Below are positions 3,602 through 64,000 of a stretch of 64,000 nt of DNA, piece by piece (position 1 is the first letter of the stretch; the number at the start of each line of letters is the position of its first letter). The translations under genes and the position numbers were made by a program. The notes under the pieces are model-generated. The model saw only the letters and a program-made list of their open reading frames with translations, was not told where the DNA came from and did no database searches. Location of the stretch: the NCBI RefSeq assembly GCF_003334335.1, contig NZ_QOWQ01000001.1. One strand, 5' to 3'. Source of the stretch: Escherichia coli (lineage in GTDB: Bacteria > Pseudomonadota > Gammaproteobacteria > Enterobacterales > Enterobacteriaceae).

Positions 3602-3678
<77 letters not shown>

Positions 3679-5067: not shown

Positions 5068-5175
5068 TTCATGCCGGATGCGGCGTGAACGCCTTATCCG
5101 GCCTACAAATCATGCAAATCCAAAATATTGCAGGAGTTATGTAGGCCTGATAAGCGTAGCGCATCAGGCATTTAT
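5068..5175. repeat. REP (repetitive extragenic palindrome) pair, BIME-like
   Basis: gccggatgcggcgtgaacgccttatccggcctaca and inverted tgtaggcctgataagcgtagcgcatcaggca between mltA and tcdA. Confidence 0.75.
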
Positions 5176-8163: not shown

Positions 8164-8369
8164 AAAAAAAAGCACCGCAATTAGGCGGTGCTACATTAAT
8201 CACTATGGACAGACAGGGTAAATGTACAGGAAGTGAAAAAAGGTAGCTTTGCTACCATGGTCTGAATCGCAGACCAATTGCAAACACAACAACACAACAT
8301 CACAACCGTAAGCCAAAAGTTCACCAGAACACGCATTCCGATAAAACTTTTCGTTCCGGCTCAGGAAGT
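8164..8369 (-). ncRNA. gcvB: GcvB small regulatory RNA (Hfq-dependent), divergent from gcvA
   Basis: Reverse complement reads ACTTCCTGAGCCGGAACGAAAAGTTTTATCGGAATGCGTGTTCTGGTGAACTTTTGGCTTACGGTTGTGATGTTGTGTTGTTGTG...GCACCGCCTAATTGCGGTGCTTTTTTTT; G/U-rich target-binding region and terminal hairpin with U-run. Confidence 0.85.
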
Positions 8370-8497
8370 GCCGCCACTATAGGTATTTGCTGGTAGAAGC
8401 TCAACGGACAATTTATAATGGCTCAGATTAAAAAAACTAATAGGTTACATAGTGTGATCTAATTGTTAAATTCATTTAACATCAAAGTTTAATAGCC

Positions 8498-9415
8498 ATG
8501 TCTAAACGATTACCACCGCTAAATGCCTTACGAGTTTTTGATGCCGCAGCACGCCATTTAAGTTTCACTCGCGCAGCAGAAGAGCTTTTTGTGACCCAAG
8601 CCGCAGTAAGTCATCAAATCAAGTCTCTTGAGGATTTTTTGGGGCTAAAACTGTTCCGCCGCCGTAATCGTTCACTCCTGCTGACCGAGGAAGGGCAAAG
8701 CTATTTCCTCGATATCAAAGAGATATTTTCGCAATTAACCGAAGCGACGCGTAAACTCCAGGCCCGTAGCGCCAAGGGGGCGTTGACGGTCAGTTTACTC
8801 CCCAGTTTCGCCATTCATTGGTTGGTTCCGCGACTTTCCAGCTTTAATTCAGCTTATCCGGGAATTGACGTTCGAATCCAGGCGGTTGATCGTCAGGAAG
8901 ATAAGCTGGCGGATGATGTTGATGTGGCGATATTTTATGGTCGGGGCAACTGGCCGGGGCTACGGGTGGAAAAACTGTACGCCGAATATTTATTGCCGGT
9001 GTGTTCGCCGCTACTGCTGACTGGCGAAAAACCCTTGAAGACACCGGAAGATCTGGCTAAACATACGTTATTACATGATGCTTCGCGCCGTGACTGGCAG
9101 ACATATACCCGACAGTTGGGGTTAAATCATATCAACGTTCAGCAAGGGCCAATTTTTAGCCATAGCGCCATGGTGCTGCAAGCGGCTATCCACGGGCAGG
9201 GAGTGGCGCTGGCAAATAACGTGATGGCGCAATCTGAAATCGAGGCCGGACGTCTTGTTTGCCCGTTTAATGATGTTCTGGTCAGTAAAAATGCTTTTTA
9301 TCTGGTTTGTCATGACAGTCAGGCAGAACTGGGTAAAATAGCCGCCTTTCGCCAATGGATCCTGGCGAAAGCCGCTGCTGAACAAGAAAAATTCCGCTTT
9401 CGTTATGAACAATAA
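8498..9415 (+). CDS. gcvA: LysR-family regulator of the glycine cleavage system
   Basis: 305 aa, MSKRLPPLNALRVFDAAARHLSFTRAAEELFVTQAAVSHQIKSLE HTH. Confidence 0.9.
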   Translation: MSKRLPPLNALRVFDAAARHLSFTRAAEELFVTQAAVSHQIKSLEDFLGLKLFRRRNRSLLLTEEGQSYFLDIKEIFSQLTEATRKLQARSAKGALTVSLLPSFAIHWLVPRLSSFNSAYPGIDVRIQAVDRQEDKLADDVDVAIFYGRGNWPGLRVEKLYAEYLLPVCSPLLLTGEKPLKTPEDLAKHTLLHDASRRDWQTYTRQLGLNHINVQQGPIFSHSAMVLQAAIHGQGVALANNVMAQSEIEAGRLVCPFNDVLVSKNAFYLVCHDSQAELGKIAAFRQWILAKAAAEQEKFRFRYEQ

Positions 9416-25784: not shown

Positions 25785-26330
25785 GTGGACGATTTGACCG
25801 CACAAGCCCTGAAAGATTTTACTGCACGCTACTGCGATGCGTGGCATGAAGAGCATAAAAGCTGGCCGTTAAGTGAGGAACTGTACGGTGTTCCTTCACC
25901 GTGCATTATTTCAACTACCGAAGATGCCGTATACTGGCAACCCCAGCCGTTTACCGGGGAACAAAATGTAAACGCGGTTGAACGCGCTTTTGATATTGTG
26001 ATACAACCCACAATTCATACCTTTTATACGACTCAGTTTGCCGGGGATATGCACGCGCAGTTTGGCGATATCAAACTGACATTGCTGCAAACCTGGAGTG
26101 AAGACGACTTCCGTCGGGTGCAGGAAAATCTGATTGGTCATCTGGTGACTCAGAAAAGGCTAAAACTGCCGCCCACACTATTTATCGCGACGCTGGAAGA
26201 AGAGTTAGAGGTCATCTCGGTGTGTAATCTCTCCGGTGAAGTGTGCAAAGAGACGCTGGGAACACGTAAACGGACGCATTTAGCCTCAAATCTTGCGGAA
26301 TTCCTTAATCAACTTAAGCCTCTTCTGTAA
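25785..26330 (+). CDS. syd: SecY-interacting protein Syd
   Basis: 181 aa, [40 protein letters not shown]. Confidence 0.88.
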
Positions 26331-26349
26331 TCCAAATACCCCATCTGGT

Positions 26350-26367
26350 TGTGAGAGATCTCTTACA
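26350..26367. promoter_or_regulatory. UvrY (BarA/UvrY two-component) binding palindrome upstream of csrB
   Basis: TGTGAGAGATCTCTTACA, perfect 18-bp palindrome about 175 nt upstream of the csrB 5' region; barA is encoded at 33252..36008 in this window. Confidence 0.65.
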
Positions 26368-26540
26368 GACTCTGTAGGAGATCGCTAGGAAATAAGCGAA
26401 TACTTAAAAAGATAAGAATCGTTATTTTCATTTAAAATCAAAATGTTGATTGTTAATTCTTAACTTTCATATGAAATTTTCCTTAAGGCATTGTCTGTAA
26501 GCGCCTTGTAAGACTTCGCGAAAAAGACGATTCTATCTTC

Positions 26541-26907
26541 GTCGACAGGGAGTCAGACAACGAAGTGAACATCAGGATGATGACACTTCTGCAGGACACA
26601 CCAGGATGGTGTTTCAGGGAAAGGCTTCTGGATGAAGCGAAGAGGATGACGCAGGACGCGTTAAAGGACACCTCCAGGATGGAGAATGAGAACCGGTCAG
26701 GATGATTCGGTGGGTCAGGAAGGCCAGGGACACTTCAGGATGAAGTATCACATCGGGGTGGTGTGAGCAGGAAGCAATAGTTCAGGATGAACGATTGGCC
26801 GCAAGGCCAGAGGAAAAGTTGTCAAGGATGAGCAGGGAGCAACAAAAGTAGCTGGAATGCTGCGAAACGAACCGGGAGCGCTGTGAATACAGTGCTCCCT
26901 TTTTTTA
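26541..26907 (+). ncRNA. csrB: CsrB regulatory RNA (CsrA-sequestering)
   Basis: About 367 nt with no long ORF; many CAGGA(U)G / AGGA hairpin-loop motifs (caggatgatg, accaggatggtg, tccaggatggag, tcaggatgattc, ttcaggatgaag, ttcaggatgaac, aaggatgagc); ends in terminator gggagcgctgtgaatacagtgctccc + T7. Confidence 0.9.
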
Positions 26908-26951
26908 TTCCTGCTATCCTTCGCGGCAGTTTTTCTTATTGAGGTTGCTTT

Positions 26952-27281
26952 ATGACCACTCATGACCGCGTTCGTCTCCAGTTGCAGGCGCTTGAAGCGT
27001 TACTGCGTGAACATCAGCACTGGCGAAACGATGAACCCCAGCCGCATCAATTTAATAGTACCCAACCGTTCTTTATGGACACCATGGAACCACTGGAGTG
27101 GTTGCAGTGGGTGCTGATCCCGCGAATGCACGATTTGTTAGATAACAAACAGCCGTTACCGGGCGCTTTTGCCGTTGCACCCTATTATGAAATGGCGCTG
27201 GCGACGGACCATCCGCAACGCGCGCTTATTCTGGCTGAGCTGGAAAAACTGGATGCTCTTTTTGCGGATGATGCGAGCTAA
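26952..27281 (+). CDS. yqcC: DUF446 protein YqcC
   Basis: 109 aa, MTTHDRVRLQLQALEALLREHQHW; stop overlaps truC start (TAATG). Confidence 0.85.
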   Translation: MTTHDRVRLQLQALEALLREHQHWRNDEPQPHQFNSTQPFFMDTMEPLEWLQWVLIPRMHDLLDNKQPLPGAFAVAPYYEMALATDHPQRALILAELEKLDALFADDAS

Positions 27282-30318: not shown

Positions 30319-31659
30319 ATGGCGACACAATCCAGTCCTGTTATTACTGATATGAAAGTCATTCCGGTGGCAGGGCATGACAGCATGTTGCTTAATATTG
30401 GTGGGGCACATAACGCATATTTCACCCGCAATATTGTGGTACTCACCGATAACGCCGGGCATACCGGCATTGGTGAAGCGCCGGGCGGAGATGTGATTTA
30501 TCAGACGCTTGTCGATGCTATTCCGATGGTTCTGGGCCAGGAAGTTGCGCGACTGAATAAAGTGGTCCAGCAGGTGCATAAAGGTAATCAGGCCGCCGAT
30601 TTTGATACCTTCGGTAAAGGTGCCTGGACCTTTGAATTACGCGTTAACGCCGTGGCGGCGCTGGAAGCCGCTTTGCTTGACCTGCTAGGTAAGGCGCTGA
30701 ATGTTCCGGTCTGCGAACTGTTAGGGCCAGGCAAGCAACGCGAGGCTATTACCGTCCTCGGTTATCTGTTTTATATCGGTGATCGGACCAAAACCGATCT
30801 TCCTTATGTGGAAAATACGCCGGGCAACCATGAGTGGTATCAGTTGCGGCATCAGAAAGCAATGAACAGCGAAGCCGTTGTGCGTCTGGCGGAAGCCTCA
30901 CAGGATCGCTACGGCTTTAAAGATTTCAAACTTAAGGGCGGCGTGTTACCTGGCGAGCAAGAAATCGACACTGTTCGTGCATTGAAGAAACGCTTCCCGG
31001 ATGCGCGGATTACCGTTGATCCCAACGGTGCATGGCTGCTTGATGAAGCCATTTCTTTATGCAAAGGGCTGAATGATGTTCTTACCTATGCCGAAGATCC
31101 ATGCGGCGCAGAACAGGGCTTCTCCGGACGTGAAGTGATGGCGGAATTTCGACGGGCGACCGGCTTGCCCGTCGCGACTAACATGATCGCCACCAACTGG
31201 CGCGAAATGGGTCATGCGGTGATGCTCAATGCGGTAGATATTCCACTTGCCGATCCGCACTTCTGGACGCTTTCCGGTGCAGTCCGTGTGGCGCAGCTTT
31301 GCGACGACTGGGGGCTGACCTGGGGCTGCCATTCTAATAACCATTTCGATATCTCTCTGGCGATGTTTACCCATGTGGGCGCGGCGGCACCGGGTAATCC
31401 TACCGCTATCGATACCCACTGGATTTGGCAGGAGGGCGATTGTCGCCTGACCCAAAATCCGCTGGAGATTAAAAACGGAAAAATTGCCGTTCCTGATGCG
31501 CCCGGTCTGGGCGTGGAACTGGACTGGGAACAGGTACAAAAGGCACATGAGGCCTATAAACGTCTGCCTGGCGGTGCGCGTAACGACGCAGGTCCGATGC
31601 AGTACCTGATCCCCGGCTGGACCTTTGACCGTAAACGTCCCGTTTTCGGCCGTCATTGA
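30319..31659 (+). CDS. gudX: Glucarate dehydratase-related protein (enolase superfamily)
   Basis: ORF 30304..31659; recognised start [31 protein letters not shown] at 30319 (446 aa). Confidence 0.9.
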
Positions 31660-31679
31660 TTCTGAAAAAGGACATAAAT

Positions 31680-33020
31680 ATGAGTTCTCAATTTACGACG
31701 CCTGTTGTTACTGAAATGCAGGTTATCCCGGTGGCGGGTCATGACAGTATGCTGATGAATCTGAGTGGTGCACACGCACCGTTCTTTACGCGTAATATTG
31801 TGATTATCAAAGATAATTCTGGTCACACTGGCGTAGGGGAAATTCCCGGCGGCGAGAAAATCCGTAAAACGCTGGAAGATGCGATTCCGCTGGTGGTAGG
31901 TAAAACGCTGGGTGAATACAAAAACGTTCTGACGCTGGTGCGTAATACTTTTGCCGATCGTGATGCTGGTGGGCGCGGTTTGCAGACATTTGACCTACGT
32001 ACCACTATTCATGTAGTTACCGGGATAGAAGCGGCAATGCTGGATCTGCTGGGGCAGCATCTGGGGGTAAACGTGGCATCGCTGCTGGGCGATGGTCAAC
32101 AGCGTAGCGAAGTCGAAATGCTCGGTTATCTGTTCTTCGTCGGTAATCGCAAAGCCACGCCGCTGCCGTATCAAAGCCAGCCGGATGACTCATGCGACTG
32201 GTATCGCCTGCGTCATGAAGAAGCGATGACGCCGGATGCGGTGGTGCGCCTGGCGGAAGCGGCATATGAAAAATATGGCTTCAACGATTTCAAACTGAAG
32301 GGCGGTGTACTGGCCGGGGAAGAAGAGGCCGAGTCTATTGTGGCACTGGCGCAACGCTTCCCGCAGGCGCGTATTACGCTCGATCCTAACGGTGCCTGGT
32401 CGCTGAACGAAGCGATTAAAATCGGTAAATACCTGAAAGGTTCGCTGGCTTATGCAGAAGATCCGTGTGGTGCGGAGCAAGGTTTCTCCGGGCGTGAAGT
32501 GATGGCAGAGTTCCGTCGCGCGACAGGTCTACCGACTGCAACCAATATGATCGCCACCGACTGGCGGCAAATGGGCCATACGCTCTCCCTGCAATCCGTT
32601 GATATCCCGCTGGCGGATCCGCATTTCTGGACAATGCAAGGTTCGGTACGTGTGGCGCAAATGTGCCATGAATTTGGCCTGACCTGGGGTTCACACTCTA
32701 ACAACCACTTCGATATTTCCCTGGCGATGTTTACCCATGTTGCCGCCGCTGCACCGGGTAAAATTACTGCTATTGATACGCACTGGATTTGGCAGGAAGG
32801 CAATCAGCGCCTGACCAAAGAACCGTTTGAGATCAAAGGCGGGCTGGTACAGGTGCCAGAAAAACCGGGGCTGGGTGTAGAAATCGATATGGATCAAGTG
32901 ATGAAAGCCCATGAGCTGTATCAGAAACACGGGCTTGGCGCGCGTGACGATGCGATGGGAATGCAGTATCTGATTCCTGGCTGGACGTTCGATAACAAGC
33001 GCCCGTGCATGGTGCGTTAA
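31680..33020 (+). CDS. gudD: D-glucarate dehydratase
   Basis: ORF 31656..33020; recognised start [32 protein letters not shown] at 31680 (446 aa); paralog of gudX. Confidence 0.9.
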
Positions 33021-33139
33021 GACAGAAAACCAAAACCGGCTCTATCTGGAGCCGGTTTGAGACTGATGCTAAACGCAAAATAGCCTGTTGTGCTATGTAT
33101 CAGGTCTACATCATTTTTTAATTCATTGAATTTAATTGG

Positions 33140-33185
33140 TTTTGTAGGCCGGATAAGGCGTTAACGCCGCATCCGGCATAAACAC
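33140..33185. repeat. REP element between gudD and barA
   Basis: ttttgtaggccggataaggcgttaacgccgcatccggcataaaca. Confidence 0.7.
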
Positions 33186-33251
33186 AGGCACTTTGTCACC
33201 AATCTGAAACCAGCGTCATAAAAAGCCGATTGCTACTCGACAAGACATCCA

Positions 33252-36008
33252 TTACCCGAGAATTTTGCTGGCTTCGCGCGCGACATTATCCATCTCGTCC
33301 AACAGTTCCAGCAGCTCCGGTTCCAAATCTTCTTCTTTAGTACCGCTACGTAGCTGTTGTTCGATCAGTTGGCAGAGATTCTTCATACGTGGCACACCGC
33401 TATAGCCGCAACTGCCATGCAGTTTATGAATCAAATCAACCAGGCCTTCCGGGTTTTCTCCAACCAGCTGTTCCTCAACTTTGTTGCGAACTTCAGGCAG
33501 GAAATCGAGTAACATTTGCAGCATATCGCGCGCTAAATCGGTTTTTCCTGCTGCCTGGCGTAGTGCCAGTTGCCAGTCGAGGGTCGCATTCGGGTTCACC
33601 ACAATTTCGTTGACTTCGGGCGTCACGACGCGAGAGGAAATACCGCTGCCAGGCTTGTAGCGCAACAACAAATTATGCAATCGCTCTTCTTCAATCGGTT
33701 TCGCCAGATAATCGCTCATCCCTGCGCCAAGCAGCTTCTCTTTTTGCCCGGCCATTGCATGCGCCGTTACCGCGATAACCGGCGTTTGTTGCTGATGCGG
33801 GAGTTGGTGGATGAGTTCGCAGGCCCGAATGCCATCCATGTCCGGCATTTGAATATCCATTAAGATCAAATCGAACGGCATCTGTTTCGCCCGTTCAACC
33901 GCCTGATGCCCGCTATCGCAAAGTTCCACATGTTGCACCATATCTTCCAGCAATGCGCCGATAAGTTTCAGGTTAGCGGGGTTGTCATCAACCGCCATGA
34001 CTGTCATTGCCAGCTTACTTTCATCGGTTACAGGCAAAAGCGTGTTTTGTTTGTGATGACAAAATTCCGTCAGGGCAGGCAACAGGCGTGTAGGTGTTAA
34101 TGGTTTCAGCAGACACGCGCCGATACCATCTTGCTTGAGTTTTTCAGCATTGACTTGTGCATGGCAAGGAAGTGCCAGCATCAGGAAATCGGTCATCGAT
34201 ACCGCTTTCGCTAATCGCTCATGTTGCATTGTTAGCGGCTCGCGGAAGGTCACCGCGATGCCTAACAACATCATGTCGTAATGCGCGGGAGGCAGCGCGG
34301 AGAACGTTGGGCTATAAACCACTTCCAGCGGCGTTTCACTTAAAATATCCAGCGTGCATTGCGCTGCTGCGGAGTTTGGTTCGACATAGGCCAGGCGCTT
34401 ACCTGCGAGGCACTGGGTGGATGGCCCTTCGATAATAATGTTCGGGTTCAGATCGAGATTAATGTGGAACCAGAAAGTTGAACCGCGATTCGGCTGGCTA
34501 TGGAACGAAATATCGCCGCCCATTTCATTAACCAGTTTTTGTGTAATCACCAGCCCCAGCCCGGTGCCACCATGACGGCGGGAAATACTGGCATCAGCCT
34601 GTCGGAAGGCCTGGAATAAGCGCGATTGATCGCGTTCAGGAATACCAATGCCGGTATCCCGAATCTGCACTTCAATCTGCACTTTGGTATTACTCAGCGC
34701 ACGTTTTTCTACCAGAATATCAATGTTGCCATTCTCGGTGAATTTAATTGCATTCCCCACCAGGTTAGTGATGATTTGCTGTAATCGCAGCGGGTCGCCG
34801 ATCACGTTATCAGGCACGTCGCTTTTAATATTGAGCGTCAGTTCTAACCCTTTATCGTGAGAAGAATGTGCCAGCAGAGTAACGACTTCATCCAGCGTGC
34901 TGCGTAGTGGGAATGGAATACTTTCCAGAATCAGCTTACCTGCTTCCAGTTTCGAGAAGTCGAGAACATCATTAATAATTGCCAGCAAATTATTTGCCGA
35001 ACGTTCAATCGTATTCAGGTGATCGCGCTGCGTTGGTGTTAATTCTGTTTTCAGCGTCAGGCGGGTAAAGCCAATAACACCATTCAGTGGTGTACGCAGC
35101 TCGTGTGACATATTTGCCAGAAACTCGGATTTAATACGCGCCGCTTCCTGGGCGCGCTTTTTCGCCAGATCTAACTCAACGTTCTGAATTTCCATCTGCT
35201 CCAGCGTTTCACGCAGATCGGACGTCGCCTGGTCGATATTGTGCTGCATCTCTTCGTGATAAGCAGCCAGCGACATTGCCATCGAGTTGATACCGTTTTT
35301 CAGCATATCCAGCTCGCCGAGCATAAATCCTTCCACCCGGCTGTCGAGTTGCCCGCGACGGATGCGGTCGACGGTATTCACCATGTTGCGAATCGGACCG
35401 GTTACATCGCGCATTAAGCGCCAGCCAAAAATAAGCGCAATACCGATACAAAACAGCATCATCACGCTGGAAATAAAGATCTCTTTATATTGCTGCAAGC
35501 GAACCGATTTAAGATCCAGCTCCAGCGCAATATATCCCAACATATTTTGACTATTTTTGGCATCGCTACTGGGCGATTCGTCGGGGGAGTAACTCTCAGA
35601 AATAATCGGCGTGCGGAGGATCATAATATCGCCGTCACGAGTGACAGTGAGCTGGCGAGGAAACGGCACGTTGCTGCCGAGCTGCATTGATGAGGGATCA
35701 AGATGAAAATTGGAGGTGACAAAGAGTCGGTTATTTTCATCATAAACCGAAATCGCGCGAACAATATCGGAATGGCGACGATGCAGTACGCTTATTAACT
35801 GACCGATAGATTCGCGATTTTGCAGGCTCATGCCATATTCAGTAGAAACTGCAAGCGGCTCAATAATGCTGGCACCGGCATCTTCCAGTTGACGCTGCAA
35901 GTCGTTATAGCGATGCACGACGAAAAAGATACTCAGCAATAAACCAATAAGGACGGTCGGTGCCAGGATCAGAATCATCATGCGTGCGCGCAGGCTGTAG
36001 TTGGTCAT
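33252..36008 (-). CDS. barA: Hybrid sensor histidine kinase BarA (tripartite phosphorelay)
   Basis: 918 aa, [29 protein letters not shown]; HisKA H-box ([17 protein letters not shown]), receiver and HPt domains. Confidence 0.92.
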
Positions 36009-36064
36009 GGAGTTCCGTTATGGGACAATTAAGGTCACACTGTTAAATTGAGAAAGTCTCGCCA

Positions 36065-37366
36065 ATGGCGCAATTCTACTCTGCAAAACGACGCACGACG
36101 ACGCGTCAGATCATAACCGTTTCAGTCAACGACCTCGACTCTTTTGGTCAGGGCGTGGCGCGACATAACGGCAAAACGCTATTTATCCCCGGATTATTGC
36201 CGCAGGAAAACGCGGAAGTTACTGTTACTGAAGATAAAAAACAGTATGCCCGCGCTAAAGTCGTACGCCGGTTAAGCGATAGCCCGGAACGCGAAACGCC
36301 ACGCTGTCCTCATTTTGGCGTATGCGGTGGCTGTCAGCAACAACACGCCAGCGTGGATTTACAGCAGCGAAGCAAAAGTGCGGCACTCGCCCGATTAATG
36401 AAACACGATGTCTCTGAAGTGATCGCCGATGTTCCCTGGGGCTATCGCCGTCGCGCGCGTTTAAGTCTGAACTACTTACCGAAAACACAGCAACTTCAGA
36501 TGGGGTTTCGCAAAGCGGGCTCCAGTGACATTGTCGACGTCAAACAATGCCCCATTTTAGCGCCCCAACTTGAAGCATTGCTGCCCAAAGTCAGGGCATG
36601 TCTGGGCAGCTTACAAGCTATGCGCCATCTTGGTCATGTTGAACTGGTACAGGCAACCAGCGGCACGCTGATGATTTTGCGCCATACCGCACCGCTAAGT
36701 TCGGCAGATCGCGAAAAACTGGAACGCTTTTCGCATTCTGAAGGCCTGGATCTGTATCTCGCCCCCGATAGTGAGATACTCGAAACCGTCTCTGGTGAGA
36801 TGCCCTGGTATGACTCAAACGGGTTGCGCTTAACTTTTAGCCCGCGCGATTTTATTCAGGTCAATGCGGGTGTGAACCAAAAAATGGTAGCGCGTGCGTT
36901 GGAATGGCTGGATGTGCAACCTGAAGATCGCGTACTGGATCTGTTCTGCGGTATGGGCAACTTTACACTGCCATTGGCGACACAAGCTGCCAGTGTGGTC
37001 GGTGTAGAAGGTGTTCCGGCGCTGGTGGAAAAAGGCCAGCAGAATGCGCGTCTTAATGGCTTACAGAATGTGACGTTTTATCACGAAAATCTTGAAGAAG
37101 ATGTCACAAAGCAGCCGTGGGCGAAAAACGGCTTCGATAAAGTGTTGCTGGACCCGGCGCGAGCAGGTGCCGCAGGTGTTATGCAGCAAATTATAAAACT
37201 GGAACCTATTCGTATAGTTTATGTATCCTGTAACCCTGCAACGCTGGCTCGGGATAGCGAAGCGTTATTAAAAGCAGGATATACCATTGCGCGACTGGCG
37301 ATGCTGGATATGTTCCCACACACGGGACATCTGGAATCGATGGTACTTTTCTCGCGCGTTAAATAG
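36065..37366 (+). CDS. rlmD: 23S rRNA m5U1939 methyltransferase (RumA)
   Basis: 433 aa, [43 protein letters not shown]; Fe-S cysteines [14 protein letters not shown]. Confidence 0.9.
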
Positions 37367-37413
37367 TTGCGATTTGCCGATTTCGGCAGGTCTGGTCCCT
37401 AAAGGAGAGGACG

Positions 37414-39648
37414 ATGGTTGCGGTAAGAAGTGCACATATCAATAAGGCTGGTGAATTTGATCCGGAAAAATGGATCGCAAGTCTGGGTATTACCAGCCAG
37501 AAGTCGTGTGAGTGCTTAGCCGAAACCTGGGCGTATTGTCTGCAACAGACGCAGGGGCATCCGGATGCCAGTCTGTTATTGTGGCGTGGTGTTGAGATGG
37601 TGGAGATCCTCTCGACATTAAGTATGGACATTGACACGCTGCGGGCGGCGCTGCTTTTCCCTCTGGCGGATGCCAACGTAGTCAGCGAAGATGTGCTGCG
37701 TGAGAGCGTCGGTAAGTCGGTCGTTAACCTTATTCACGGCGTGCGTGATATGGCGGCGATCCGCCAGCTGAAAGCGACGCACACTGATTCTGTTTCCTCC
37801 GAACAGGTCGATAACGTTCGCCGGATGTTATTGGCGATGGTCGATGATTTTCGCTGCGTAGTCATCAAACTGGCGGAGCGTATTGCTCATCTGCGCGAAG
37901 TAAAAGATGCGCCGGAAGATGAACGTGTACTGGCGGCAAAAGAGTGTACCAACATCTACGCACCGCTGGCTAACCGTCTCGGAATCGGACAACTGAAATG
38001 GGAACTGGAAGATTACTGCTTCCGTTACCTCCATCCAACCGAATACAAACGAATTGCCAAACTGCTGCATGAACGGCGTCTCGACCGCGAACACTACATC
38101 GAAGAGTTCGTTGGTCATCTGCGCGCTGAGATGAAAACTGAAGGCGTTAAAGCGGAAGTGTATGGTCGTCCGAAACACATCTACAGCATCTGGCGTAAAA
38201 TGCAGAAAAAGAACCTCGCCTTTGATGAGCTGTTTGATGTGCGTGCGGTACGTATTGTCGCCGAGCGTTTACAGGATTGCTATGCCGCACTGGGGATAGT
38301 GCACACTCACTATCGCCACCTGCCGGATGAGTTTGACGATTACGTCGCTAACCCGAAACCAAACGGTTATCAGTCTATTCATACCGTGGTTCTGGGGCCG
38401 GGTGGAAAAACCGTTGAGATCCAAATCCGCACCAAACAGATGCATGAAGATGCAGAGTTGGGTGTTGCTGCGCACTGGAAATATAAAGAGGGCGCGGCTG
38501 CTGGCGGCGCACGTTCGGGACATGAAGACCGGATTGCCTGGCTGCGTAAACTGATTGCGTGGCAGGAAGAGATGGCTGATTCCGGCGAAATGCTCGACGA
38601 AGTACGTAGTCAGGTCTTTGACGACCGGGTGTACGTCTTTACGCCGAAAGGTGATGTCGTTGATTTGCCTGCGGGATCAACGCCGCTGGACTTCGCTTAC
38701 CACATCCACAGTGATGTCGGACACCGCTGCATCGGGGCAAAAATTGGCGGGCGCATTGTGCCGTTCACCTACCAGCTGCAGATGGGCGACCAGATTGAAA
38801 TTATCACCCAGAAACAGCCGAACCCCAGCCGTGACTGGTTAAACCCAAACCTCGGTTACGTCACAACCAGCCGTGGGCGTTCGAAAATTCACGCCTGGTT
38901 CCGTAAACAGGACCGTGACAAAAACATTCTGGCTGGGCGGCAAATCCTTGACGACGAGCTGGAACATCTGGGGATCAGCCTGAAAGAAGCAGAAAAACAT
39001 CTGCTGCCGCGTTACAACTTCAATGATGTCGACGAGTTGCTGGCGGCGATTGGTGGCGGGGATATCCGTCTCAATCAGATGGTGAACTTCCTGCAATCGC
39101 AATTTAATAAGCCGAGTGCCGAAGAGCAGGACGCCGCCGCGCTGAAGCAACTTCAGCAAAAAAGCTACACGCCGCAAAACCGCAGTAAAGATAACGGTCG
39201 CGTGGTAGTCGAAGGTGTTGGCAACCTGATGCACCACATCGCGCGCTGCTGCCAGCCGATTCCTGGAGATGAGATTGTCGGCTTCATTACCCAGGGGCGC
39301 GGTATTTCAGTACACCGCGCCGATTGCGAACAACTGGCGGAACTGCGCTCCCATGCGCCAGAACGCATTGTTGACGCGGTATGGGGTGAGAGCTACTCCG
39401 CCGGATATTCGCTGGTGGTCCGCGTGGTAGCTAATGATCGTAGTGGGTTGTTACGTGATATCACGACCATTCTCGCCAACGAGAAGGTGAACGTGCTTGG
39501 CGTTGCCAGCCGTAGCGACACCAAACAGCAACTGGCGACCATCGACATGACCATTGAGATTTACAACCTGCAAGTGCTGGGGCGCGTGCTGGGTAAACTC
39601 AACCAGGTGCCGGATGTTATCGACGCGCGTCGGTTGCACGGGAGTTAG
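37414..39648 (+). CDS. relA: (p)ppGpp synthetase I (GTP pyrophosphokinase)
   Basis: 744 aa, MVAVRSAHINKAGEFDPEKWIASLGITSQKSCECL. Confidence 0.92.
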   Translation: MVAVRSAHINKAGEFDPEKWIASLGITSQKSCECLAETWAYCLQQTQGHPDASLLLWRGVEMVEILSTLSMDIDTLRAALLFPLADANVVSEDVLRESVGKSVVNLIHGVRDMAAIRQLKATHTDSVSSEQVDNVRRMLLAMVDDFRCVVIKLAERIAHLREVKDAPEDERVLAAKECTNIYAPLANRLGIGQLKWELEDYCFRYLHPTEYKRIAKLLHERRLDREHYIEEFVGHLRAEMKTEGVKAEVYGRPKHIYSIWRKMQKKNLAFDELFDVRAVRIVAERLQDCYAALGIVHTHYRHLPDEFDDYVANPKPNGYQSIHTVVLGPGGKTVEIQIRTKQMHEDAELGVAAHWKYKEGAAAGGARSGHEDRIAWLRKLIAWQEEMADSGEMLDEVRSQVFDDRVYVFTPKGDVVDLPAGSTPLDFAYHIHSDVGHRCIGAKIGGRIVPFTYQLQMGDQIEIITQKQPNPSRDWLNPNLGYVTTSRGRSKIHAWFRKQDRDKNILAGRQILDDELEHLGISLKEAEKHLLPRYNFNDVDELLAAIGGGDIRLNQMVNFLQSQFNKPSAEEQDAAALKQLQQKSYTPQNRSKDNGRVVVEGVGNLMHHIARCCQPIPGDEIVGFITQGRGISVHRADCEQLAELRSHAPERIVDAVWGESYSAGYSLVVRVVANDRSGLLRDITTILANEKVNVLGVASRSDTKQQLATIDMTIEIYNLQVLGRVLGKLNQVPDVIDARRLHGS

Positions 39649-59166: not shown

Positions 59167-60966
59167 ATGACGACACAGGTCCCACCTTCCGCGTTGCTTC
59201 CGTTGAACCCGGAGCAACTGGCACGCCTTCAGGCGGCCACGACCGATTTAACTCCCACCCAGCTTGCCTGGGTTTCTGGCTATTTCTGGGGCGTACTCAA
59301 TCAGCAGCCTGCTGCGCTTGCAGCGACGCCAGCGCCAGCCGCAGAAATGCCGGGTATAACTATTATCTCCGCCTCGCAAACCGGCAATGCGCGCCGGGTT
59401 GCTGAAGCATTACGTGATGATTTATTAGCTGCAAAACTGAACGTTAAGCTGGTGAACGCGGGCGACTATAAATTCAAACAAATCGCCAGCGAAAAACTGC
59501 TCATCGTAGTGACGTCAACGCAAGGGGAAGGGGAACCGCCGGAAGAAGCCGTCGCGCTGCATAAGTTCCTGTTCTCCAAAAAAGCGCCAAAGCTGGAAAA
59601 CACCGCGTTTGCCGTGTTTAGCCTCGGCGATAGCTCTTATGAATTTTTCTGCCAGTCCGGGAAAGATTTCGACAGCAAGCTGGCGGAACTGGGTGGTGAA
59701 CGCCTGCTCGACCGTGTCGATGCCGATGTTGAATACCAGGCTGCTGCCAGCGAGTGGCGCGCCCGCGTGGTTGATGCGCTTAAATCGCGTGCGCCTGTCG
59801 CGGCACCTTCGCAATCCGTCGCTACTGGCGCGGTAAATGAAATCCACACCAGCCCGTACAGCAAAGACGCGCCGCTGGTGGCTAGCCTCTCTGTTAACCA
59901 GAAAATTACCGGGCGTAACTCTGAAAAAGACGTTCGCCATATCGAAATTGACTTAGGTGACTCGGGCCTGCGTTACCAGCCGGGTGACGCGCTGGGCGTC
60001 TGGTATCAGAACGATCCGGCACTGGTGAAAGAACTTGTCGAACTGCTGTGGCTGAAAGGCGATGAACCTGTCACCGTCGAGGGCAAAACGTTGCCTCTGA
60101 ACGAAGCGCTACAGTGGCACTTCGAACTGACCGTCAACACCGCCAACATTGTTGAGAATTACGCCACGCTTACCCGCAGTGAAACACTGCTGCCGCTGGT
60201 GGGCGATAAAGCGAAGTTACAGCATTACGCCGCGACGACGCCGATTGTTGACATGGTGCGTTTCTCCCCGGCACAGCTTGATGCCGAAGCGCTAATTAAT
60301 CTGCTGCGCCCGCTGACGCCGCGTCTCTATTCCATTGCCTCCTCGCAGGCGGAAGTCGAGAACGAAGTACACGTCACCGTTGGTGTGGTGCGTTACGACG
60401 TGGAAGGCCGCGCCCGTGCCGGTGGTGCCTCCAGCTTCCTCGCTGACCGCGTGGAAGAAGAGGGCGAAGTCCGCGTATTTATCGAACATAACGATAACTT
60501 CCGCCTGCCAGCCAATCCAGAAACCCCGGTGATTATGATTGGCCCAGGCACCGGCATCGCGCCGTTCCGCGCCTTTATGCAGCAACGTGCTGCCGATGAA
60601 GCGCCGGGAAAAAACTGGCTGTTCTTTGGCAACCCGCACTTTACGGAAGATTTCCTCTACCAGGTGGAGTGGCAGCGCTACGTCAAAGAGGGTGTGCTGA
60701 CGCGGATCGATCTCGCCTGGTCGCGCGACCAAAAAGAAAAAGTTTACGTACAAGACAAACTGCGCGAACAGGGCGCGGAGCTGTGGCGCTGGATCAATGA
60801 CGGTGCCCACATTTATGTCTGCGGTGACGCTAATCGCATGGCGAAAGACGTTGAGCAGGCACTTCTGGAAGTGATTGCCGAATTTGGTGGCATGGACACC
60901 GAAGCGGCGGATGAATTTTTAAGTGAGCTGCGCGTAGAGCGCCGTTATCAGCGAGATGTCTACTAA
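59167..60966 (+). CDS. cysJ: Sulfite reductase [NADPH] flavoprotein alpha component
   Basis: 599 aa, [42 protein letters not shown]; flavodoxin and FNR-like domains. Confidence 0.92.
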
Positions 60967-62678
60967 TGAGCGAAAAACATCCAGGGCCTTTAGTGGTCGA
61001 AGGAAAACTGACAGACGCCGAGCGCATGAAGCTTGAAAGCAACTACCTGCGCGGCACCATTGCGGAAGATTTAAACGACGGTCTGACCGGCGGCTTTAAG
61101 GGCGACAACTTCCTGCTGATCCGCTTCCACGGCATGTATCAGCAGGATGACCGCGACATCCGCGCCGAACGTGCTGAACAGAAGCTGGAGCCGCGCCACG
61201 CGATGCTGTTGCGCTGCCGTCTGCCGGGTGGGGTGATTACCACTAAACAGTGGCAGGCGATAGACAAATTTGCCGGTGAAAACACCATCTATGGCAGCAT
61301 TCGCCTGACCAACCGCCAGACGTTTCAGTTCCACGGCATTCTGAAAAAGAACGTCAAACCGGTGCACCAGATGCTGCACTCGGTTGGTCTTGATGCGCTG
61401 GCGACCGCTAACGACATGAACCGTAACGTACTCTGCACCTCGAACCCTTACGAGTCGCAGCTACACGCGGAAGCGTACGAGTGGGCGAAGAAGATTTCTG
61501 AGCATCTGCTGCCGCGTACCCGCGCGTATGCGGAGATCTGGCTCGACCAGGAAAAAGTCGCCACTACTGATGAAGAACCGATCCTCGGCCAGACCTACCT
61601 GCCGCGTAAATTCAAAACCACGGTAGTGATCCCGCCACAGAACGATATCGATCTGCACGCCAACGACATGAACTTCGTGGCGATCGCCGAAAACGGCAAG
61701 CTGGTGGGCTTTAACCTGTTGGTGGGCGGTGGGCTTTCCATCGAACACGGCAACAAGAAAACCTACGCCCGCACCGCGAGTGAGTTTGGCTATCTGCCGC
61801 TGGAGCATACGCTGGCGGTGGCCGAAGCCGTCGTGACAACTCAGCGTGACTGGGGTAACCGAACCGATCGTAAAAATGCCAAAACCAAATACACGCTGGA
61901 GCGCGTGGGGGTTGAGACGTTTAAAGCGGAAGTGGAGCGTCGCGCGGGGATCAAATTTGAACCGATCCGTCCATATGAGTTCACCGGACGAGGCGATCGT
62001 ATTGGCTGGGTTAAGGGCATTGATGATAACTGGCACCTGACGCTGTTTATCGAAAATGGTCGCATCCTTGATTATCCGGCGCGTCCGCTGAAAACCGGCC
62101 TGCTGGAGATCGCGAAGATCCACAAAGGCGATTTCCGCATTACGGCGAACCAGAATCTGATCATCGCCGGTGTACCGGAAAGCGAGAAAGCGAAGATCGA
62201 GAAGATCGCCAAAGAGAGCGGGTTAATGAATGCCGTCACGCCGCAGCGTGAAAACTCAATGGCCTGCGTGTCATTCCCGACTTGCCCGCTGGCGATGGCG
62301 GAAGCGGAGCGTTTCCTGCCGTCTTTTATCGACAACATCGATAATTTAATGGCGAAACATGGTGTCAGCGATGAGCATATCGTGATGCGTGTAACAGGCT
62401 GCCCGAACGGTTGTGGTCGCGCGATGCTGGCGGAAGTGGGCCTGGTGGGTAAAGCGCCGGGTCGCTACAACCTGCATCTTGGCGGCAACCGCATTGGGAC
62501 ACGTATCCCTCGGATGTATAAAGAAAACATCACCGAGCCGGAAATCCTGGCGTCGCTTGATGAACTGATAGGGCGCTGGGCGAAAGAGCGCGAAGCGGGT
62601 GAAGGCTTCGGCGACTTTACGGTGCGTGCGGGCATCATTCGCCCGGTGCTCGATCCGGCGCGCGATTTGTGGGATTAA
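60966..62678 (+). CDS. cysI: Sulfite reductase [NADPH] hemoprotein beta component
   Basis: 570 aa, [64 protein letters not shown]; start overlaps cysJ stop (TAATG). Confidence 0.92.
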
Positions 62679-62691
62679 CCATCAGCCCGGT

Positions 62692-62733
62692 CTTGTAGGC
62701 CTGATAAGACGCGTGAGCGTCGCATCAGGCAAG
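62692..62733. repeat. REP element between cysI and cysH
   Basis: cttgtaggcctgataagacgcgtgagcgtcgcatcaggcaagg. Confidence 0.7.
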
Positions 62734-62751
62734 GCAAACAGTGAGGAATCT

Positions 62752-63486
62752 ATGTCCAAACTCGATCTAAACGCCCTGAACGAACTGCCGAAGGTAGATC
62801 GCATTCTGGCGCTGGCGGAAACTAACGCCCAACTGGAAAAACTGGACGCTGAAGGCCGCGTAGCCTGGGCGCTGGATAATCTGCCCGGTGAATATGTGCT
62901 TTCTTCCAGCTTCGGCATTCAGGCGGCGGTGAGCCTGCATCTGGTGAATCAGATTCGGCCGGATATTCCAGTGATCCTCACCGATACCGGTTATCTGTTT
63001 CCGGAAACCTACCGCTTTATTGACGAGTTAACGGACAAACTCAAGCTCAACCTGAAAGTGTACCGTGCTACCGAAAGCGCCGCCTGGCAGGAAGCACGCT
63101 ACGGCAAACTGTGGGAACAGGGCGTTGAAGGCATTGAAAAGTACAATGACATCAACAAAGTCGAACCGATGAACCGGGCGCTGAAAGAACTTAACGCGCA
63201 AACCTGGTTTGCTGGCCTGCGCCGCGAACAATCCGGCAGCCGCGCCAATTTACCGGTGCTGGCAATTCAGCGTGGCGTATTTAAAGTGCTGCCGATTATC
63301 GACTGGGATAACCGAACTATTTATCAGTACCTGCAAAAACATGGCCTGAAATATCACCCATTATGGGATGAAGGATATTTATCGGTCGGTGATACCCATA
63401 CAACCCGTAAATGGGAACCTGGCATGTCGGAAGAAGAAACACGTTTCTTTGGCTTAAAAAGGGAATGTGGATTGCACGAAGGGTAA
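62752..63486 (+). CDS. cysH: Phosphoadenosine phosphosulfate (PAPS) reductase
   Basis: Real start [65 protein letters not shown] inside ORF 62599..63486 (244 aa); C-terminal ECGLH. Confidence 0.9.
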
Positions 63487-63652
63487 ATATTGCCGGATAA
63501 ATTAAACGCCTCTGTCAGAAATGATGGGGGCGTTTTTATTTTGCGAGCAGTATTCCTGATTTTAAACGTGAACGCCGCTGGAAGAATTATCAGGTATAGA
63601 ATGGCGTCGGGTGCTTGAGGCTGTCTGGCGTTAAGCATTCGCGAGGTTCCAG

Positions 63653-63757
63653 ATGGACAAAAGCCCCAGGCGATATTTCTATCAACCTGAGGCTTACGTT
63701 CGAACCCAAACAATTCGAATGTTAGTCTCTTCTTTGCAGGGAGGCAAGACATGCTGA
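63653..63757 (+). CDS. Mok-like upstream coupling ORF (34 codons) overlapping the hok-like start
   Basis: atg at 63653 to tga at 63755-63757 ([34 protein letters not shown]); stop overlaps the hok-like ATG (acATGcTGA); arrangement typical of hok/sok loci. Confidence 0.4.
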
Positions 63758-63903
63758 CAAAATATGCCCTTGTGGCAATCATAGTGCTGTGTTTTACAGT
63801 ACTGGGATTCACGCTGATGGTAGGCGACTCGTTGTGTGAGTTGAGTATCAGAGAACGTGGTATGGAGTTTAAGGCAGTTCTCGCTTACGAATCGAAGAAG
63901 TAG
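63751..63903 (+). CDS. Hok-family small membrane toxin (50 aa), below the size cut-off of the ORF track
   Basis: [50 protein letters not shown]: N-terminal TM helix, conserved Cys plus C-terminal AYES(K) motif as in Hok/Gef; preceded by GGAGG at about 63741. Confidence 0.7.
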
Positions 63904-64000
63904 CCACCACGCGGGGGTAAAACCCATAAGCGCTAACTTAAGGGTTGAACCATCTGAAGAATGCGACGCCTCGGTGCCTCGTTAAGACGATGCCTCGCGT

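Follow-up and report, generated by a model that had tools for sequence, protein, structure and literature searches.

The question raised by this locus is what occupies the gap between syd and yqcC at positions 26331–26951 of the window, as we call the whole 64,000-nucleotide stretch of Escherichia coli DNA analysed here. A first-pass annotation, made from the sequence alone, had filled this gap with the small RNA gene csrB, preceded by a binding site of the response regulator UvrY, and a second one, between ygdI and gcvA, with the small RNA gene gcvB. It is almost certain that the former gap consists of csrB and its long upstream control region and that the latter contains gcvB, and no observation speaks against either assignment. 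Reference identity, covariance-model membership, motif content, element positions, and conservation of the module were determined in this analysis, while binding, activation, sequestration, decay, and the target regulon are taken from the literature on identical K-12 sequences.

In a BLAST search, the window aligned colinearly, in the reverse orientation, with the chromosome of K-12 MG1655 (NC_000913.3, approximately 2,951,284 to 2,887,311), and it represents an ordinary stretch of E. coli chromosome. There are 86 differences from MG1655 in all, only 14 of which fall between 3.6 kb and 59.4 kb of the window; the remaining differences are concentrated in cysJIH, near the window end. On this comparison, the strain is close to K-12, yet not identical to it; besides the 86 differences, only one of the three tRNA-fMet copies is present and the window end carries an intact hok gene, so that K-12 itself is ruled out as the source.

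Two small RNA genes between protein-coding genes

A scan of the whole window with the Rfam models at the gathering threshold gave five matches, CsrB, GcvB, sok, tRNA, and ES036. The CsrB model (RF00018) matched positions 26550–26909 of the plus strand with 380.4 bits against a gathering score of 71 (E = 1e-110), covering model positions 1–356 of 356, and the interval 26541–26909 is 100% identical to the annotated csrB gene of K-12 (b4408, 369 nt). The first-pass annotation had given csrB as 26541–26907; its 5′ end is exact, while the 3′ end in the K-12 annotation lies two nucleotides further on, at 26909, within the U-tail. The following features of the RNA gene were located:

26541..26909, plus strand: csrB, 369 nt, predicted CsrA-sequestering sRNA (Rfam RF00018, identity with K-12 b4408)
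26874..26906, plus strand: intrinsic terminator of csrB, an 11-bp stem with 7 G-C pairs and a loop of 4, followed by T7 (terminator scan, Rfam consensus structure, and MFE fold)
approximately 26857..26873, plus strand: putative region of the RNase E "necessary cleavage site", unstructured, between the last single-stranded GGA (site 21, 26854–26856) and the terminator (placed from PMC5027483, the GGA map, and the fold)

The gene contains 22 GGA, 14 AGGA, and 10 CAGGA motifs. The first pass had reported multiple CAGGA(U)G loops; a small correction is that only 8 of the 22 GGA triplets fit CAGGA[T/A]G exactly. Across the window, 369 nt contain 4.6 ± 2.3 GGA on average, and no stretch of this length outside csrB exceeds 13. 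Raw GGA is only moderately enriched over dinucleotide shuffles of csrB itself (22 versus 14.8 ± 2.5), because the composition of csrB is itself GGA-like, while CAGGA occurs 10 times versus 1.3 in the shuffles. The statistical weight for the enrichment is carried by the CAGGA motif and the window-wide comparison. The mean probability of being unpaired is 0.80 for the GGA nucleotides and 0.36 for the other nucleotides of csrB; in the MFE structure, 18 of the 22 GGA have at least two of their three nucleotides unpaired, and the fold z-score is −3.85. The strong terminator claimed for csrB was recovered as an 11-bp stem followed by T7.

The final 107 nt of csrB carry five GGA, four single-stranded and one within the terminator stem. 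Vakulskas et al. (2016, PMC5027483) described GGA sites 18–22 of csrB and mapped the necessary cleavage site of RNase E immediately 5′ of the terminator; the total of 22 GGA, with five in the last 107 nt, agrees with their numbering of sites 18–22.

Could this interval encode one or several small proteins instead of, or besides, a noncoding RNA? Six mechanically predicted ORFs of 26–71 aa overlap the csrB gap, but these are short and distributed over both strands, and GTG is the start codon of most of them. Moreover, the full length of a structured-RNA covariance model is matched here with 380 bits, the feature conserved at csrB across genera is the pattern of GGA loops rather than a reading frame, and the K-12 curators annotate csrB as an ncRNA. 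The protein-coding reading is thus extremely improbable, and the small ORFs were rejected as coding given the full-length match to the RNA model. A noncoding csrB of the CsrB/RsmB family agrees with all the features observed, namely a score over the full model, many mostly unpaired GGA, a 3′ Rho-independent terminator, and only short mechanical ORFs.

Sequestration of CsrA by the K-12 csrB RNA has been shown experimentally (PMC5027483, PMC7652899), and on the grounds of 100% identity the csrB RNA of the window is expected to bind and sequester CsrA as well. The 22 GGA of its noncoding 369-nt product, mostly single-stranded or in small hairpin loops, would bind many CsrA dimers and draw CsrA off its mRNA targets. 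Turnover of CsrB would begin with RNase E cleavage just 5′ of the terminator; CsrA bound to the last GGA sites would shield the cleavage site, and CsrD would overcome this shielding (PMC5027483).

Over its 369 nt, csrB of the window is the same as K-12 csrB (b4408). It is likewise flanked by syd on the upstream and yqcC on the downstream side, and the 22 GGA, the terminator, and the sequence and position of the UvrY box also agree; the sole difference is an upstream SNP at −155 (26386, T versus C). The second RNA of this type in E. coli, csrC, has the same function and the same regulator, and an upstream UvrY inverted repeat is also present there. Unlike csrB, it resides at another locus, outside the window, has a weaker inverted repeat (TGTGAGACATTGCCGATA) and a shorter RNA, and does not depend on IHF (PMC4682653).

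The second RNA gene, gcvB, had been placed at 8164–8369 on the minus strand. The Rfam model RF00022 (GcvB) matched exactly this interval (8369–8164, minus strand) with 199 bits versus a gathering score of 42, over model positions 1–204 of 204, and 8164–8369 is 100% identical to K-12 gcvB (b4443, 206 nt), which bears out the assignment. For both RNAs, the covariance-model search proposed as a check in the first pass returned scores of about five times the curated thresholds over the full models. The features of the gcvB locus are as follows:

8164..8369, minus strand: gcvB, 206 nt, sRNA, Hfq-dependent by analogy with K-12 (Rfam, identity with K-12 b4443)
approximately 8307–8281 (nt 63–89), minus strand: putative G/U-rich R1 seed, placed by reading the sequence against PMC9299463
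8256–8242, minus strand: internal terminator-like hairpin (terminator scan)
approximately 8235–8221, minus strand: putative R2 region, CACUUCCUGUACAUU, placed by reading the sequence against PMC9299463
8192–8171, minus strand: final terminator (terminator scan)
8376..8404, minus strand: sigma-70 promoter of gcvB, TTGAGC, 17-nt spacer, and TATAGT (9/12 matches in the promoter scan)
8498..9415, plus strand: gcvA, LysR-type activator of gcvB, divergent; 305-aa protein starting MSKRLPPLNALRVF, maps to K-12 gcvA (b2808)

The −10 hexamer of the gcvB promoter ends 7 nt before the +1 position (8369, minus strand), as expected for a sigma-70 promoter, and the gcvA start (8498, plus strand) is located 128 bp from this +1. 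The fold z-score of gcvB is −3.63. The score over the full model, the divergent orientation relative to gcvA, the G/U-rich R1 seed, and the terminal Rho-independent terminator all agree with membership in the GcvB family. In comparison with K-12 gcvB (b4443), no difference was found: the 206 nt are the same, as are the promoter and terminators, and the gene is divergent from gcvA and convergent with ygdI. The distance between the 5′ ends of csrB and gcvB, 18,172 bp, is also the same as in K-12.

GcvB is characterised by GcvA/GcvR-controlled transcription, decay triggered by the SroC sponge, and a large Hfq-dependent regulon (Miyakoshi et al. 2022, PMC9299463). Identity with the K-12 gene suggests that gcvB of the window likewise represses mRNAs of amino-acid transporters and amino-acid metabolism in an Hfq-dependent manner (PMC9299463). 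The gene would be transcribed divergently from gcvA under GcvA/GcvR control at high glycine, and GcvB together with Hfq would base-pair via the G/U-rich R1, and also via R2 and R3, with many mRNAs of amino-acid transport and metabolism, leading to their repression (PMC9299463).

Both RNAs are base-for-base the K-12 genes and were already known, as the first-pass annotation acknowledged in calling them established biology; csrB and gcvB of the window are known K-12 reference genes, and the finding is correct but ordinary. Its warning that ORF-based annotation misses such genes is confirmed by PGAP-annotated RefSeq E. coli records, which list only syd and yqcC under the csrB interval. The curated K-12 record carries both genes as ncRNA features, csrB between yqcC and syd and gcvB between gcvA and ygdI. 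The main value of the result is therefore for annotation: ORF pipelines, and PGAP too in the case of csrB, leave these gaps unlabelled, and labelling csrB and gcvB keeps them from passing as empty or novel DNA, while the current understanding is unchanged. Both are global post-transcriptional regulators, CsrB acting on CsrA and, by way of CsrA, on carbon metabolism, biofilm formation, and motility, and GcvB on amino-acid uptake and metabolism.

The control region upstream of csrB

The long region between syd and csrB was searched for regulatory elements, and the following were placed:

26350..26367, strand not assigned: predicted operator of UvrY, the response regulator of the BarA–UvrY system; 18-bp near-palindrome TGTGAGAGATCTCTTACA, centre at −183/−182 from csrB +1 (26541)
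26373..26383, plus strand: additional UvrY-type half-site TGTAGGAGATC, 5 nt past the palindrome on the promoter side; putative function
26436..26451, strand not assigned: putative IHF site, consensus WATCAANNNNTTR, with pattern matches at 26436–26448 (plus strand) and 26439–26451 (minus strand), approximately −105 to −90, in an AT-rich spacer
26506..26536, plus strand: candidate core promoter region of csrB, TTGTAA (−35 to −30) and GATTCTAT (−12 to −5), blocks conserved in a 15-genus alignment

The sequence TGTGAGAGATCTCTTACA occurs once in the window, with about 0.02 matches expected at up to three mismatches. The first-pass annotation had called it an 18-bp UvrY palindrome; it does lie at the published site, but the palindrome is imperfect, with 8 of 9 pairs complementary, so that the reverse strand differs at two positions, which represent one mismatched pair. 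In K-12, DNase I protection of TGTGAGAGATCTCTTACA at −183/−182 was seen with phosphorylated UvrY and not with the unphosphorylated protein, and the same sequence lies at the centre of the upstream UvrY ChIP-exo peak, spanning −222 to −142 (Zere et al. 2015, PMC4682653). The box of the window is the same in sequence and position as this footprint, and BarA-dependent binding of phosphorylated UvrY has been published for the identical K-12 sequence (PMC4682653). The presence of a TGTRAG-N6-CTYACA box upstream of csrB places the gene in the GacA/UvrY-controlled family at the sequence level, and its activation by UvrY is expected by analogy.

Alternatively, the 18-bp palindrome could be the terminator of syd or a chance palindrome rather than a regulator site. 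It is located directly 3′ of the syd stop codon (syd ends at 26330, 20 bp upstream) and could form a short RNA hairpin. Nevertheless, it is not followed by a T-run, the terminator scan made no call there, and on these grounds its role as the syd terminator was rejected; only about 0.02 chance matches are expected, and the sequence is exactly the footprint of phosphorylated UvrY (PMC4682653). Such an origin of the palindrome therefore has next to no credibility, and we regard it as the UvrY operator.

On the promoter side, TGTAGGAGA at 26373–26381 starts 5 bp after TGTGAGAGATCTCTTACA, as in the operator description of Zere et al. (2015), where it is mentioned for E. coli and Salmonella as a "partially conserved" additional sequence (PMC4682653). 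The IHF consensus falls between the UvrY box and the csrB promoter, and an AATCAA..TT block in this region is conserved in the alignment of 15 genera. In K-12, a putative IHF site was located between two UvrY cross-linking regions, and CsrB decreased about 10-fold without IHF (Zere et al. 2015, PMC4682653).

A consensus sigma-70 scan of 26300–26960 found no strong match for a csrB promoter, and the core promoter was therefore placed from the blocks conserved in 15 genera. TTGTAA and GATTCTAT are tentatively assigned as the hexamers of a weak, activator-dependent core promoter, and the absence of a strong sigma-70 match fits with such activator dependence. A GACGA-N8-TCGTC inverted repeat at 26526–26543 (−15 to +3 of csrB), flagged as a terminator-like hairpin on the minus strand, probably arose by chance, since its conservation does not extend even to Citrobacter or Enterobacter.

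Taking these elements together with the published data, one could propose that BarA phosphorylates UvrY, the gene of which, like csrA, csrD, and hfq, is outside the window, and that UvrY-P would bind the 18-bp inverted repeat at −183/−182 (PMC4682653). Bending of the AT-rich spacer by IHF, with its consensus near −100, would then bring UvrY-P to the weak sigma-70 promoter, and transcription would start at 26541.

The sole difference from K-12 within 26266–26965 is the T at 26386 (C in K-12), at position −155. The csrB interval is present in all 5,426 complete E. coli genomes, none of which is identical to the window across 26250–27000, the best match being 99.9%. The T allele is rare, nearly all E. 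coli having C as in K-12, and only 3 of the 5,426 genomes are identical to the window over the 101 nt of 26336–26436. The position falls within the upstream region cross-linked by UvrY; in the 15-genus alignment, about half of the genera have C in this column, which is outside any conserved block. An effect of the T on csrB, as judged from these data, is possible but unlikely.

The box and its RNA gene in other Gammaproteobacteria

To place the csrB control region in a broader context, GTDB representatives (one genome per species) were scanned for exact TGTRAGAGATCTCTYACA, which yielded at least 120 loci, with 125 box occurrences among the matches listed. The loci listed belong to Enterobacterales, Vibrionaceae, Shewanella, Halomonadaceae, Alcanivorax, Kangiella, and a small number of further groups. 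As each locus was selected by its 18-mer, the presence of the 18-mer there is no evidence of conservation, and only the features flanking it were counted, namely the density of GGA, the third half-site, the block around the IHF site, and synteny. The centre of the box, AGATCT, contains a Dam GATC site, the conservation of which cannot be judged from an exact-pattern search.

For 90 of the 125 box occurrences among the matches listed, a 300-nt stretch with at least 18 GGA begins 120–240 nt to one side, and a further 23 have 10–17 GGA; the locus background is about 3–5 per 300 nt. Of the 16 loci from Enterobacterales and Vibrionaceae that were scanned with Rfam, 15 have a CsrB call beside the box, Vibrio breoganii being the only exception. 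The box centre is located 175–204 nt upstream of the start of the CsrB model in twelve enteric genera, and 191.5 nt upstream in the window. The gene order syd–box–csrB–yqcC–truC–yqcA is kept across Enterobacterales and partly in Vibrionaceae and Shewanella. The box is also oriented: in 59 of the 90 loci among the matches listed, TGTGAG is distal and CTTACA proximal to the RNA gene, while 11 show the reverse arrangement. Both the recurrence of the same 18-mer before GGA-rich RNA genes in many genera and its preferred orientation relative to them are further arguments against a syd terminator or a chance palindrome. Altogether, these flanking features indicate that the module comprising the box and a GGA-rich RNA is ancient and non-random.

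The boxes of GacA, UvrY, SirA, and VarA upstream of csrB and csrC, of csrB–D in Vibrio, and of rsmX/Y/Z in Pseudomonas share the TGTRAG-N6-CTYACA architecture, and a box of this type upstream of a GGA-rich sponge RNA is found in Enterobacterales, Vibrionaceae, Shewanella, and other groups. The E. coli csrB box differs from other Csr/Rsm boxes in being unusually far upstream (approximately −183) and IHF-dependent (PMC4682653). At some non-enteric loci, unlike at E. coli csrB, shorter GGA-rich stretches start 0–100 nt from the box.

The third half-site is conserved in the 15-genus alignment. Among the matches listed, 65 of 90 loci have a TGTRRG motif starting 5–6 nt past the box towards the promoter, compared with 4 of 90 on the distal side; the half-site reads TGTAGGAGATC in E. 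coli and often exactly TGTGAGAGATC in other genera. Together with the box orientation across genera, this represents a small refinement of the known UvrY/GacA operator, slightly extending the remark made for E. coli and Salmonella in the 2015 paper. One could hypothesise that TGTAGGAGATC (26373–26383) is a functional part of the operator and not a relic, and that it might accommodate a further subunit or dimer of UvrY or determine in which direction activation proceeds, but we consider this rather doubtful. Were the third half-site functional, csrB output in the strain of the window could be changed by the rare T at 26386 (−155, C in K-12), which lies just beyond this half-site.

In Shewanella (four loci), the box stands beside 20–23 GGA per 300 nt, and in Vreelandella (three loci), Alcanivorax (two), and Kangiella (one) beside 9–15 GGA per 300 nt. 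Five of these loci, two from Shewanella and one from each of the other three genera (L014, L071, L009, L007, and L028), were scanned with Rfam, and no family was detected at the gathering score. The GGA-rich stretches in these four genera are likely to be Csr/Rsm-type sponge RNAs beyond the reach of current models. Three tandem CsrB-family genes were observed within 2 kb at one locus of Photobacterium indicum (L064, 2618–4512), as well as at L075 and L029; the exact box pattern precedes two of the three tandem genes of P. indicum. An exact box was also found outside Gammaproteobacteria, on a contig of a Bacteroidota MAG (uncultured Porphyromonadaceae, L046, 14541–14558), with 11 GGA nearby and no Rfam match; it may be a chance match or a result of bin contamination.

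The separation of csrB and gcvB is only about 7 kb in Yersinia nurmii and Edwardsiella ictaluri, versus 18 kb in E. coli. From this shorter spacing it follows that the shared neighbourhood of the two genes would predate the insertion of fuc, sda, and other genes.

barA and other features of the window

The kinase gene barA had been reported to lie about 6 kb from csrB in the same window, and this distance holds:

33252..36008, minus strand: barA, 918-aa ORF, predicted sensor kinase phosphorylating UvrY; maps to K-12 barA (b2786, 2915057–2917813)

The 3′ end of barA is located 6.3 kb from the 3′ end of csrB, and the region 30372–38137, including barA, has no nucleotide difference from K-12. One could suppose that this proximity is due to a functional or selected linkage of the kinase with its indirect target and did not arise by accident; in Escherichia albertii and Enterobacter sp. 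Ag1, too, only a few kb separate barA from csrB. However, BarA would act on csrB in trans through UvrY, the uvrY gene is encoded far from both barA and csrB in K-12, and the unrelated gudPXD operon separates barA and csrB in E. coli. A tblastn search for barA on the fetched loci, most of which are too short to reach barA, found it in two enteric loci only, and in Vibrionaceae loci it produced only weak partial matches to histidine kinases, with 28–32% identity. Selected linkage appears improbable, and the neighbourhood of barA and csrB is more probably an accident of gene order.

The remaining Rfam matches in the window are as follows:

3605–3678, minus strand: tRNA, one gene
5106–5148, plus strand: ES036 (CssrF) sRNA, 46.5 bits versus 37.6, in the tcdA–mltA intergenic region
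63609–63766, plus strand: sok, antitoxin RNA of hok/sok, 113 bits

The tRNA match corresponds to one initiator tRNA-Met gene at 3602–3678 (minus strand). K-12 carries three at this place, metZ, metW, and metV, and of its three 110-bp repeat units the window lacks two. At the sok locus, K-12 retains only the annotated sokX sRNA.

SNPs relative to K-12 become much denser towards the end of the window: a stretch of 56 kb contains only 14, and the 4.3 kb across cysJIH (59430–63753) contain about 70. Homology to K-12 stops at 63753, the remaining stretch being 63754–64000. Other E. coli strains are 100% identical to this end of the window (59430–64000), and an intact gene of the Hok/Gef family is annotated in them. 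Judging by these patterns, the region 59430–64000 looks like a recombination boundary beside the variable CRISPR-cas flank.
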